DNA of 55,937 nucleotides. Source: Planctomycetota bacterium. Its GTDB lineage: Bacteria; Planctomycetota; UBA11346. Every line of letters begins with the position of its first letter. Position 1 is the first letter of the stretch. Positions 9,001 to 12,000 of this stretch are shown here, piece by piece. Where the stretch lies: the NCBI GenBank assembly GCA_038231435.1, contig JBBRLJ010000034.1:1-55937 (forward strand), written 5' to 3'. A program made the position numbers.

Positions 9001-12000
9001 GGCGTCCGCGCCGTTGCCGTCCGCGCCTCGCTTCCAGGATGTGCGCGCATGCCGCCGATCGAGACCATCGCGAAGCCGATGCCCGGCACGGGCCCGGGGG
9101 CTGCACCATCAACCGAAGTCGACATCCAGCGCGTCTACGATCGTGCGGCTCGGCGCCTCCTGCCATTCTTGTTCATCTGCTACGTCGCGAACCACCTCGA
9201 CCGCGCCAACCTCGCCTTCCTCAAGACGCCCCTGAAGGCCATCGGCATGGACGATGCCGCGTTCGCGCTCGCGGTGGGCTGCTTCTATCTCGGCTATGCG
9301 CTGTTCGAGATACCCAGCAACCTGGTGCTCGCCCGCGTCGGCGCGCGGCGCTGGATCGCGCGCATCATGATCAGCTGGGGTCTGGTCGCCTCGGCGATGG
9401 CACTGGTAGCGACGATCGCGCAGTACAACGGCCTGCGTTTCCTGCTCGGCGCCGCCGAGGCCGGCTTCTATCCCGGCGTCATCCTCTACCTGACGCGCTG
9501 GTTCCCGCCCGAGCGGCGCGCGCGCGCGACGGCACTGTTCCTGACCTCGATCCCGCTCGCCTCGGTGATCAGCGGCCCGCTCACCAGCGAGTTGCTGCGG
9601 CTCGATGGTGCCGCGGGTCTTTCGGGCTGGCGCTGGGTGCTGCTGCTCGAGGGCCTGCCGCCGATCGTGCTCGGCATCGCGGTGCTGCGCTGGCTCCCCG
9701 ATGGGCCGGGCGACGCCCGGTGGCTGGCGCCGGCCGAGCGGGCGGCGGTGCTCGCCGACCTTTCGCCGGCCGCGGATGACGAGCATTCCTTCGTACGCAG
9801 CCTGCGCGACCCACGGCTGTGGATGCTGAGCGGGCTGTACTTCCTGCTGGTGATCGGGCTCTATGGCGTGACCAACTGGCTGCCGCCGATCATCCGCTCG
9901 CAGCCGTTCCTGGCCCACGCGCCGGAGCAGGCGATCGGCTGGCTGGTGGCGGTGCCGTTCGCCTGCGCCGCGGTGGCGATGGTGCTGGTGGCGCGCTCAT
10001 CGGATCGACGCGGCGAGCGGCGCTGGCATACCGCCGCGACTGCGGGGGTGGCGGCGGCGGCGCTGGCCATGGCCGCATGCGTCCCGCAGTCGCAGGCGCT
10101 GCTGATGATAGCGCTGAGCATCGCCTGCATGGGTGTCTTCGCCACGCTCGGACCGTTCTGGGGACTGGCCACCTCGGTGACGCGTGGCCGCGCCAGCGCC
10201 GGCGGCATCGCGCTGATCAACTCCATCGGTTGCCTGGGCGGGTACGCGGGGCCGGTGCTGTTCGAACGACTCGGGCGGCTGCACGGGCCGGTCCACGCCG
10301 GATACCTCGGTCTGGCGGCGTCGCTGGCGTTGCTGGCGATCACGGTGCCGCTGGTGCGGGCGCGCGGTAGATGACGGGTGGATGTGGATAGCGGCGGTGA
10401 GGGTTCGAGGGCTCGAAGGTGGGAAGGCTCGAAGGTAAGAAGATAAGAAGGTAAGAAAGCTTGAAGGCGCGAGGGCGGCCGGACGGCACGTCATGTGTGG
10501 GCGTTCTCCCCAGTGGCGTGATTGTCGCGATCGGCATCGGCGTCAAGGCCGGGCCGCGGTGGCCGCGGTGGGCGGGGCGCCCAGCCTTGACTCCGATGCC
10601 GTGCGTGGTGGGGCGCAAGGAGAACGACATGCAGAGATTCGAGGATTTGGGCGTGTGGCAGCGGGCGGCGGGGTTGGCGGAGAGGATTCGGCAAGAGCGG
10701 GGACTGCAGCGCAGCGGCGATGGATTGCGCAGACAGATCCGTCGGGCGGCGACATCGATCGTCTACAACATTGCTGAAGGACATGGCCGCTCGTGCGATG
10801 GCGATTTCCATCGCTTCCTGGCGATCGCGGGCGGTTCGTGCGCCGAAGTGCAGGCGCAATTGCGCATGGCGCTCAACGCAGGCCTCATTGCCCGCGATCG
10901 TTTCATCGCGTTGCTCGACGAAGCGATCGCGATCGGTTTCATGATCCGCAATCTACGACGGCGTCTGACCGGGTGAGTCGAGAGGCGCGGCAGCCACCGC
11001 ACGCCCTCTGGGCGTGCATGTCCGGATCACGACGCCCAGCGTCGCCGAAGGGCGCCGAGCATCCAACCGATCTGCTGGGCGGTGTCGATGAGGTCGAGGA
11101 AGGCTTCGCGGTCGATGTACCCGCAGGCATACGCGCGACGCAGCTGGCACTGCGCTTCCGCGCAGGAACCATTCGCGATCGCGAGGAAGTGCGCGAACTG
11201 CGGAGCGCTACCGCGCTCAGAGCCTTCGGCGATGTTGTCCGGAATCGATGCCGCTGACCGCTGCAACTGCGACGCCGCATCCGCCCGCATCCGCCGCGTC
11301 ACGATGTCCACCGCGATCGCGAAATCCTGCGCCTTCTGCCACACGATGAGTCTTTCGAACCGAGCCATGGTTGTGCTCTCCTTCGCAAAAAACCCAGCGA
11401 AGGAGCGCAGCTGTCAAGGCTGCGAACCGCGGTTCCTCCGCGGCGATCGGCGCCCCGACGATCGGCCTTGACTGCGAGCACGTTCGCTACGATCGCGAAT
11501 TCGAGGAGAGCCCCACAGAAACCGCGCCTCCTCTATGTCCTCTTCCCTCTTCCCTCTTCCCCCCACTCCTCTTCCCTCTCGCTCGCTCACGCATCCCTCG
11601 GCCAATCCCTCGATATCCAGCCGTTCGCCGATCCTGCCAGCATCGGCGGTGCCGCGCGCGAATAGCGTCGGATCGTGTGCTTTGGGCGTCACGTGGCGTC
11701 ATCAGGGGAATGGGGCGCGTGCCGACGCAGACAGGGTCGCATGCCGGGAGAGAGATCCCCGCGATGGGGCCGGCGATACAATCAGGGCTGGAGGGCGCCC
11801 ACCGGCGCCGCACACACACCATGAGCACGACCCGCACCGGTTCCTTCCCCATCGGCTTCCGTCGCGGTTGGAGCGACTGGCAGAAGGATCTCGACGGCCT
11901 GATCCGCTTCGCCAAGACCAGCGGCTTCGAGGCCATCGACGTCGGTCCGTTGCCGAAGGCCGAGCTCGAGCGCATCGTCGCCGGTGGGCTGAAGATCGGC

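Follow-up and report, generated by a model that had tools for sequence, protein, structure and literature searches.

The protein family PF05635 is very large, yet to our knowledge DGR Avd is its one member with a known function. Elsewhere, ribosome-binding sites are sequestered by the leaders of type I toxin mRNAs (hok, tisB, aapA1) and of the RNase III-activated E. coli adhE and lambda N messages, and REP/RAYT, Correia and other MITE-like repeats are dispersed palindromes that sometimes stand in inverted pairs around a gene and are possible RNase III substrates. ORF-bearing intervening sequences (IVSs) of 23S rRNA, as in Coxiella burnetii and Leptospira, encode S23p/PF05635 proteins and form very stable long stems, and according to the sections of the source on which we rely, the Coxiella IVS has a Shine–Dalgarno (SD) sequence of poor quality and apparently no protein product (PMC4990558). 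Avd is characterized, in the part of the report drawn on here, as a pentamer "similar to S23 ribosomal proteins" that is accompanied by an "Avd-binding RNA" element (10.1101/2023.10.23.563531).

We analysed a convergent pair of PF05635 genes in the window, the whole 55,937-nt contig JBBRLJ010000034.1 of a Planctomycetota bacterium (GCA_038231435.1; C34 below). The hairpin preceding each gene is probably a 5′ leader that acts in cis to control translation and forms part of a cassette with repeat arms; most likely, such hairpins are RNA switches acting on their genes rather than the ends of a jumping cassette. The underlying observation of the preliminary description, that convergent PF05635 genes are preceded by hairpins, holds at this locus and genome-wide, with convergent pairs at six loci (on C34, C13, C25, C50, C28 and C62).

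The locus shares with 23S IVSs its protein family and its very stable long stems, and in one relative (G004) the ORF likewise lies inside an inverted repeat. Here, however, the cassette stands between an MFS transporter gene on one side and a xylose-isomerase-like TIM-barrel gene on the other rather than in rRNA, the hairpin lies upstream of the ORF instead of around it, and the SD is strong but paired. No 23S rRNA gene was found in this assembly, and among five relatives one (G050) contains it, uninterrupted (2894 nt for model positions 1–2925) and with the leader copy on another contig. As in known leaders that sequester a ribosome-binding site, the SD is buried against an upstream anti-SD and the transcript would presumably be inert until processed or opened, but the stem here is of far greater length and stability, contains an invariant inner helix and precedes a four-helix-bundle gene, not a toxin peptide. 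MITE-like repeats resemble the element in being dispersed, palindromic and sometimes set in inverted pairs around a gene; they differ in that here no copies are independent of genes, the element has a fixed position at the start codon, the number of copies equals the number of genes and no transposase is adjacent. Judged by sequence, the proteins would share with DGR Avd a structural family of pentameric four-helix bundles, and Avd, in the part of the report cited, binds structured RNA (10.1101/2023.10.23.563531). By analogy we hypothesize that the PF05635 proteins of this genome bind their own leaders. Unlike a DGR, the ORFs of 9000–13000 show no evident reverse transcriptase or template/variable repeat, a negative confined to that range.

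Architecture of the paired cassette

The two genes lie tail to tail, separated by a 50-nt gap, and both exceed the curated PF05635 cut-off of 33.8 bits, as does every one of the 17 family matches in the genome. A profile built from 15 family proteins of the genome, gene A among them, matched PDB entries 2GSC (E 8.9e-23) and 2RLD (E 8.8e-9), with five chains each, a comparison of sequence profiles only. Among viral contigs, gene B had no relative save for an 18-residue match. The features of the locus, from left to right, are as follows.

10399–10467, no strand assigned: left outer array of 8-nt units (GGCTCGAA / GAAGGTAA type), TRF periods 8 and 16, purine-rich on the + strand
10468–10500, + strand: spacer between array and leader A, with the motif GACGGCACGT...TGTGG kept in 4/4 aligned pair loci
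10501–10631, + strand: leader hairpin A, from its fold, minimum-free-energy (MFE) SD pairing, match to covariance model R1 (116.7 bits) and covariation
10629–10976, + strand: gene A, 115 aa, PF05635 four-helix-bundle protein ("23S rRNA IVS protein"), Pfam E 1.5e-25, 89.9 bits
10999–11017, no strand assigned: GC-rich hairpin between the two stop codons, 8-bp stem and 3-nt loop, without a T-tract, read from the sequence
11027–11368, − strand: gene B, 113 aa, PF05635, Pfam E 1.2e-28, 99.8 bits; 47% identity to A by tblastn
11366–11513, − strand: leader hairpin B (type B), from its fold, R1 match (97.2 bits) and SD pairing
11514–11579, no strand assigned: conserved spacer, then right outer 7-nt array (TRF CCTCTTC x5.7 at 11539–11579), from alignment

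Leader A (10500–10632, + strand) folds at −78.6 kcal/mol (z −3.98) and leader B (11366–11512, − strand) at −70.6 kcal/mol (z −3.46), with none of 200 shuffles as stable in either case. At the base of leader A, the anti-SD GTTCTCC (10503–10509) pairs with AAGGAGAAC (10617–10625) just ahead of the ATG at 10629–10631; further in, an invariant core helix joins GTCAAGGC (10542–10549) to GCCTTGAC (10584–10591), and two small apical hairpins complete the fold. Leader B repeats this design with an identical core helix, an anti-SD GCTCTCC paired with GGAGAGC such that 5/5 SD nucleotides are engaged, and an apical hairpin CCGCGG-AGGAA-CCGCGG. The spacer at 10468–10500 is a possible promoter or 5′-end region. 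The element, put at about 110 nt in the preliminary description, measures 130–150 nt and does not halt at the ribosome-binding site, up to which it was said there to run: the SD itself lies inside, and the element runs to the ATG. A scan of 10250–11900 called no intrinsic terminator, the hairpin at 10999–11017 included.

The leader motif was absent from Rfam 15 in scans of the window locus and ten other loci, and our literature searches turned up no description of it. A match to radC RNA (RF01754; 20.1 bits against a threshold of 40, E 0.56) fell on the antisense strand of leader B alone and was treated as chance, since it recurred at none of the ten other loci; the matches obtained there came from miRNA-precursor models, all below threshold, that had settled on long hairpins.

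Covariation, SD pairing and gene coupling

A real stem that covaries thus accompanies the PF05635 genes. It stands directly upstream of 16/16 full-length family genes of the genome, which bears out the coupling reported earlier but corrects its count from 15 to 16 of 17; the seventeenth gene (C62:24174–24335) is truncated by a contig end, and orphan half-elements occur at other contig ends (C73:2–105, C25:3–71). Our independent model R1 returned 20 matches of at least 91.6 bits in the genome, in agreement with the 20 matches above 90 bits obtained before. Across the order, the leader-plus-gene unit was present in 21/48 genomes and 9/18 genera, and in the first eight relative genomes 45/49 elements were followed within 0–5 nt by an ATG opening a family ORF, a six-frame search adding one more gene-adjoining element (46/49). 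Among paralogs, the leader was better conserved than the coding sequence it precedes, both in type A (89% versus 82%) and in type B (86% versus 78.5%).

The predicted fold joins ...TCTCC to GGAGA... in the outermost helix of 16/16 leaders of this genome, and nearly every leader contains AGGAG or AGGA. Of 65 ATG-bearing copies, 53 had the complete SD paired in the MFE structure, compared to 109 of 650 controls (17%) in which the upstream part had been shuffled; in some copies the basal helix also pairs the start codon. The long stem with compensatory changes described before is supported by covariation above shuffled expectation. With the caveat that shuffle counts overstate significance, because related copies entered the alignments, which were themselves fitted to the model, the 16 own copies had 89.2% of cells paired (80.5±0.7 in shuffles) and 19 pairs changed on both sides (11.0±1.7, equalled in 0/500 shuffles; slid controls 5–8), 38 sense-only copies from 7 genomes had 85.7% of cells paired (68.7±0.6) and both-side changes in 31/45 pairs (22.3±1.6, equalled in 0/500 shuffles; slid controls 8–17), and 66 distinct sense rows had both-side changes in 37/45 pairs (26.4±1.7). 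Within the 38 copies, the basal SD helix showed double changes in 8/8 pairs and 90.8% pairing.

The core helix is almost invariant in 67 copies and the flanks around it covary, with core half-sites 27–70 nt apart and variable inserts between them. Such an invariant palindromic core is also the trace expected from a DNA-binding recombinase or repressor. With respect to the acting strand, G·U outnumbered A·C at model pairs of the sense strand (171 versus 44, where base composition alone predicts ~1.4:1), and the sense fold was better than the antisense in 46/67 copies and worse in 21/67. A DNA hairpin would also be possible on this measure, since G·T wobbles are tolerated in single-stranded DNA.

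Cassette ends, relics and the search for mobility

The ends of the repeated unit are set by tandem arrays. Alignment of four pair loci showed that homology of A/B pair cassettes starts in the left array and stops in the right array (GAAGAGG in gene B's sense), and the general layout is a tandem 7–8-nt array, a leader, a gene or convergent pair, and a second array, so placed that the leader lies between arm and gene. The hairpins had been taken for the boundaries of the cassette; instead, each forms the putative 5′ leader of the gene it precedes, stopping at the ATG with the SD paired, homology continues beyond it into the arrays, and the inverted appearance comes from convergent gene pairs whose two leaders face each other. 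Outer-arm duplexes of pair loci are predicted at −40 to −71 kcal/mol, which is no better than composition-matched shuffles in 6/7 (the exception being the arms on C47, z −4.25), and complementarity between the arms at the pair loci here is confined to composition. In the relative G004, inverted arrays, (CTGGTCN)n and (NGACCAG)n, enclose leader and gene, so that a long inverted repeat has the ORF in its loop; in the one pair examined in G061, the arrays are direct, not inverted. Furthermore, heptamer runs occur upstream of distant homologs in other phyla.

The gene-less inverted copies, taken earlier to bound the far side of a cassette, and the solo copies are four different deletion relics and not a designed boundary. 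Each has a breakpoint of its own: one deletion runs from mid-hairpin to codon 5, and the others break within the gene, just past the SD and in the apical loop. One of them (C14:82008–82180) consists of two leader 5′ halves fused inside the apical palindrome. We found no hairpin in this genome away from a family gene, a remnant or a contig end.

Empty sites were sought in several ways, and none was found. In G001 and G002 (same genus), the TIM-barrel gene is only ~72% identical and its neighbours differ; G021, of the genus of G004, offered ~69% identity without synteny; the flanking MFS protein, scanned against metagenomes, retrieved no relative above 50% identity; and among contigs of four DNA runs none bridges an empty site, contigs breaking at the hairpins. 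Among the sequencing runs listed as containing the locus, none is of RNA. A joint from 10642 to 11419, present in three runs, was considered as an excision and rejected, since it reproduces the junction of a paralogous relic (C28:36474–36722). A search for a RAYT/Y1 transposase yielded one weak Y1_Tnp match (C28:23259–23435, 25.1 bits, profile positions 7–62 of 121), which adjoins no element, the nearest relic being 13 kb away.

The protein clades are genome-specific, which points to spread within genomes. The unit would accordingly fit a selfish, spreading cassette: of the dispersal envisaged in the preliminary description, the dispersed repeat with genome-specific bursts agrees with our results, and the role of the hairpins as its ends does not.

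Proposed translation gating and its rivals

In the mechanism we propose, the leader would be transcribed with its gene and fold into one long, very stable stem, whose bottom helix would pair the SD, and in some copies the start codon, with the upstream anti-SD. With its SD buried in this way, the primary transcript would be translationally locked. Some factor would have to open or cleave the stem and would probably recognize the inner helix GUCAAGG/CCUUGAC; the candidates are RNase III (the gene is present in the genome), another double-strand-RNA binder and the four-helix-bundle protein itself. Its action would then permit translation or else set off decay. The whole cassette would be what is copied within genomes, the leader being an internal part. 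Without an opener, folding energies of −65 to −110 kcal/mol would mean that the gene is shut off almost completely.

Other functions could be served by so long a stem. It might act solely as an IVS-like processing signal, from which RNase III would free the cassette RNA out of read-through transcripts, the pairing of the SD being a by-product. At ~25+8 bp, the stems, which are perfect or nearly so, suffice in length for that enzyme, ~12/17 units lie co-directionally behind a host gene (as read from ORF orientations), and RNase III cleaves IVS stems with this ORF family in mid-stem, according to the relevant sections of PMC4990558. We nevertheless consider this reading unlikely: the ORF lies outside the hairpin, so cleavage would not excise it, several units point away from their neighbour and would need a promoter of their own, the covariation of the basal helix is specific to the SD region, and the prevalence of a good SD in the leaders stands against the poor SD that those sections give for the Coxiella IVS (PMC4990558). 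A site acting in DNA, where a cruciform or single-stranded hairpin is recognized by a recombinase or transposase as in REP-RAYT or IS200/IS605, would explain why the core inverted repeat stays invariant despite variable spacing, why hairpins oppose each other around gene pairs, why the C14 relic is joined within its apical palindrome and why copies come in bursts within genomes. That explanation appears quite unlikely to us, given that homology runs on past the hairpins into the arrays, that four relics have four distinct breakpoints, that all copies in this genome adjoin a family gene, a remnant or a contig end, that the element always has its 3′ end at the ATG, and that the sole Y1-like match is weak and remote.

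A shared promoter or operator, the rival that the preliminary description itself named, would mean that a dimeric regulator binds the palindrome as double-stranded DNA and that TTGAC(A) serves as a −35 box. TTGACA does occur in type B leaders and the core sequence is conserved, but 10250–11900 holds no sigma-70-like site, no −10-like hexamer follows at 16–18 nt, where the variable bulge sits, and a start 7 nt further on would delete the conserved SD leader. Moreover, the spacing of the half-sites and their variable inserts speak for a folded stem and against a dimer bound to B-DNA, and compensatory changes preserve pairing rather than sequence; we regard this option as very improbable. A leader that gates translation through its SD helix is the reading we retain. 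A wider and quite speculative version, drawn by analogy and to our minds improbable as a whole, would make the cassette an RNA–protein module, the mRNA counterpart of the rRNA IVS, in which RNase III would free the cassette RNA from host transcripts by way of the repeat arms, the encoded pentamer would bind the invariant leader helix in autoregulation, much as Avd does its RNA, and the arrays would serve as homologous landing pads for the loss of cassettes and their re-acquisition at new loci.

For this Planctomycetota lineage, these results describe repeat-armed "IVS-like" cassettes outside rRNA that carry a putative regulatory RNA internally and whose hairpins are not their ends. A leader that locks the ribosome-binding site would offer a first concrete, testable handle on the expression of PF05635 genes, and it may also point to a possible RNA partner of the PF05635 protein.

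Structured leaders of the PF05635 genes

At this locus, two genes (A and B) of the PF05635 "23S rRNA-intervening sequence protein" family stand convergently, tail to tail, with a 50-nt spacer between them, and each is preceded by a long hairpin that reaches its ATG.

Left neighbour, ending at 10374: MFS transporter gene
10500–10632 (+): hairpin A (leader A); fold −78.6 kcal/mol, z −3.98, 0 of 200 shuffles as stable
10629–10976 (+): gene A; 115 aa, PF05635, E 1.5e-25
11027–11368 (−): gene B; 113 aa, PF05635, E 1.2e-28
11366–11512 (−): hairpin B (leader B); fold −70.6 kcal/mol, z −3.46, 0 of 200 shuffles as stable
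Right neighbour: xylose-isomerase-like TIM-barrel gene

Proteins of the A/B family are ordinary PF05635 members, their profile matching PDB 2GSC and 2RLD (five chains each). The assembly (5.2 Mb, 67% G+C, 108 contigs, 88% complete) holds 17 PF05635 matches, arranged as six convergent pairs (contigs C34, C13, C25, C50, C28 and C62) and five singles. The long-stem element that the preliminary description had placed upstream of these genes indeed precedes all 16 that are full-length, the 17th being truncated by a contig end, and a covariance model built from the 16 copies (R1) reproduced the earlier count of 20 matches in this genome (at least 91.6 bits). No copy in the genome lies apart from a family gene, a gene remnant or a contig end. 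Two genes with PSD1 domains in this assembly are consistent with a member of the PVC group.

Coupling of leader to gene extends to relatives. Of 24 further genomes in the same family, 8 gave R1 matches; a sample of 16 from elsewhere in the phylum, each representing a different family, gave none. Among 49 of these places in relatives that were fetched for a gene check, 45 elements have an ATG within 0–5 nt that opens a 100–125-aa (or contig-cut) ORF matching an HMM of the own-genome proteins, and a 46th (locus L037) was joined to its ORF by six-frame search; of the remaining three, contig ends truncate two, and L066 lacks a gene. For a second model, R2, 38 sense-only copies were used, with only 6 of 18 own-genome copies taken and a cut at E 7e-11 so as to exclude antisense matches. 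It detected the element in 21 of 48 genomes of the order, all in one family and spanning 9 of 18 genera. Among distant PF05635 homologs in other phyla (29 loci), R2 gave a single match, abutting the gene in a MAG labelled Planctomycetota, and none at the other 28.

Fold, Shine-Dalgarno pairing and strand

From its base upward, the leader consists of a basal helix, a second long helix and an inner helix, GTCAAGGC/GCCTTGAC, which encloses a junction with 1–3 small GC hairpins that vary among copies. In all 16 own-genome copies the basal helix pairs an upstream ...TCTCC with the GGAGA... of the Shine-Dalgarno (SD) motif, and in several of them the pairing extends to the start codon; in leader A, GTTCTCC (10503–10509) pairs with AAGGAGAAC (10617–10625), 3 nt 5′ of the ATG. 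The SD motif was wholly paired in the minimum-energy fold of 53 of 65 ATG-bearing copies, compared to 109 of 650 (16.8%) when the upstream part was shuffled. Across all 67 copies the inner helix (GUCAAGG/CCUUGAC) hardly varies and its flanks covary, which suggests that the folded stem is recognised in a sequence-specific manner. Furthermore, leaders are more alike than the coding sequences that they precede, both among five type A paralogs (89% versus 82%) and among five type B paralogs (86% versus 78.5%).

Covariation in the 16 own copies exceeded both shuffles and slid controls, bearing out the preliminary view of the element as a real structure: 89.2% of cells were paired (shuffles 80.5±0.7, slid controls 33–50%), and 19 pairs had changed on both sides (shuffles 11.0±1.7, none of 500 reaching 19; slid controls 5–8). 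In the sense-only set (38 rows, 37 distinct), 85.7% of cells were paired (shuffles 68.7±0.6, slid controls 38–47%), 31 of 45 pairs had changed on both sides (shuffles 22.3±1.6, none of 500 reaching 31; slid controls 8–17), and both-side-changed cells numbered 244 (shuffles 77.6±6.5, slid controls 17–48). The basal SD helix showed double changes in 8 of 8 pairs in these rows, with 90.8% pairing. A wider set, in which each of 67 places was represented by its better-scoring strand and 51 antisense rows of 118 matches were left out, had double changes in 37 of 45 pairs over 66 distinct rows (shuffles 26.4±1.7). These alignments are fitted to the model's own structure; moreover, with related copies the shuffle counts cannot be read as probabilities.

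Such a structure may act as single-stranded DNA or in RNA. The model pairs of the 67 copies contain 171 G·U and 44 A·C cells, where the base composition of the element predicts about 1.4:1, and the sense strand gives the more stable fold in 46 of 67 copies (mean margin 3.6 kcal/mol). Taken with the pairing of the SD and the constant spacing to the ATG, these sequence features favour action in the sense-strand transcript.

Cassette anatomy, relics and multiplication

The preliminary description had taken the hairpins for cassette ends. In an alignment of four A/B pair loci with unrelated flanking genes (C34, C13, C25 and C6), homology instead runs past them: it starts in an 8-nt tandem array (GAAGGCTC type), continues across gene A, gene B and the leader of each, and is lost in a 7-nt array (CTCTTCC type). 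Eight near-identical single-gene cassettes of one relative (genome G004) have the order of a (CTGGTCN)n array, ~70 conserved nt, leader, gene and an inverted (NGACCAG)n array, with homology fading inside the arrays. In three cassettes of this relative (L054, L056 and L058), the downstream array is succeeded on its right by another shared, conserved segment of ~80 nt and then by a second array, made of CTGGCCC units, an arrangement that points to composite or nested repeats.

A 7- or 8-nt array lies at most 200 nt upstream in 32 of 49 relative units. In the own genome, TRF reported 51 strong 7/8-nt arrays (at least 5 copies; for example C2:209760–209895, C50:25520–25677 and C30:6718–6809), 12 of them at most 400 nt from the 15 unit places and 39 more than 400 nt from any leader-gene unit. 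At several loci two adjacent inverted arrays occur with no gene between (C17:103431–103555 and C13:113605–113755, for instance); these may be emptied cassettes. The outer arms of own-genome pairs are purine-rich and pyrimidine-rich on the + strand, and their pairing was no better than that of composition-matched shuffles in 6 of 7 loci. Another genus (G061) has eight facing leader pairs of this sort, ~780 nt apart; in the one read (L203, G061:C285:1–2721), the genes (1219–1560, +; 1550–1876, −) have overlapping 3′ ends and lie between arrays in direct orientation.

Heptamer runs also occur 5′ of distant PF05635 homologs in Verrucomicrobiota, Bacteroidota, Holophagae and others. Most of the distant loci L072–L100 have them ~40–160 nt 5′ of the gene, the word differing by lineage (GGTTGCA-type in Verrucomicrobiota, GGATTCR in Bacteroidota, AATTTCA in Segatella, GGCAGTT in Holophagae and Polyangiales). 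The Bacteroidota homologs also have in common a short conserved hairpin before the start codon.

Gene-less inverted copies had likewise been read as far-side boundaries of cassettes; the own genome's four gene-less copies are instead distinct deletion relics.

C6:15204–15352 (−): ~60 nt remain from the decayed start of a type A gene
C47:10251–10406 (−): SD leads directly into the stop region of the opposite gene
C28:36474–36722: truncated type B leader fused to a type A leader with the initial 14 nt of its gene
C14:82008–82180: two leader 5′ halves head to head, junction within the apical palindrome

As the breakpoints differ in all four, they mark no site-specific reaction. The opposite gene at C47:9894–10235 is a pseudogene with an intact leader, an in-frame TAG replacing a conserved TGG (Trp); a tRNA gene lies ~1 kb to its right (L006:3545–3628, 51.5 bits).

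In a tree of 56 proteins of 100–130 aa (15 from the own genome, 41 from relatives; contig-cut ORFs, over-long ORFs and the C47 pseudogene left out), paralogs fall in genome-specific clades: six type A and five type B copies of the own genome, seven and three copies of G004 (branch lengths down to 0.008), four of G020 and three of G013. Leader-gene units have therefore multiplied within genomes. An empty site was found neither in same-genus representatives, which are ~70% identical and non-syntenic, nor in metagenomes scanned with the adjacent MFS protein, where all relatives returned had at most 50% identity; in contigs of four DNA runs, none bridges a cassette-free form.

Proposed mechanism and known systems

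The fold, the SD pairing, the link to the gene and the layout of the cassette are shown by the results above. We lean towards a reading in which the element is a 5′ leader that would hold the mRNA translationally locked until a factor recognising the invariant inner helix cleaves or opens the stem; we infer that the leader is transcribed, processed and met by such an opener. RNase III is the obvious candidate, as its gene is present in this genome and it is described as cutting ORF-bearing stems of 23S rRNA intervening sequences (IVS) mid-stem (PMC4990558). The encoded PF05635 protein itself could be a second, since its relative Avd, a pentamer described as "similar to S23 ribosomal proteins", has a dedicated "Avd-binding RNA" (10.1101/2023.10.23.563531).

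The cassette is IVS-like only in part. Unlike a 23S IVS, it is located outside rRNA, its conserved hairpin does not enclose the ORF and it retains a strong SD; only the outer arrays, most clearly in G004, recall IVS terminal repeats. A REP/MITE-type repeat was rejected, since copies free of a gene are lacking and no transposase is linked. The Y1-transposase-like match at C28:23259–23435 (−), weak and partial (25 bits), falls within a 353-aa open frame and adjoins no cassette. Comparison with Rfam rejected radC or another of its families for the leader, and a sigma-70 promoter was likewise rejected, none being recognisable in 10250–11900. Our literature search, with subscription journals outside its coverage, turned up no description of a leader or cassettes of this kind.

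The closest known kinds are SD-sequestering leaders and IVS-like PF05635 cassettes. The leader is a real and well-supported new motif, specific to a single gene family within a single Planctomycetota lineage, and it sits inside a repeat-armed, multiplying cassette.
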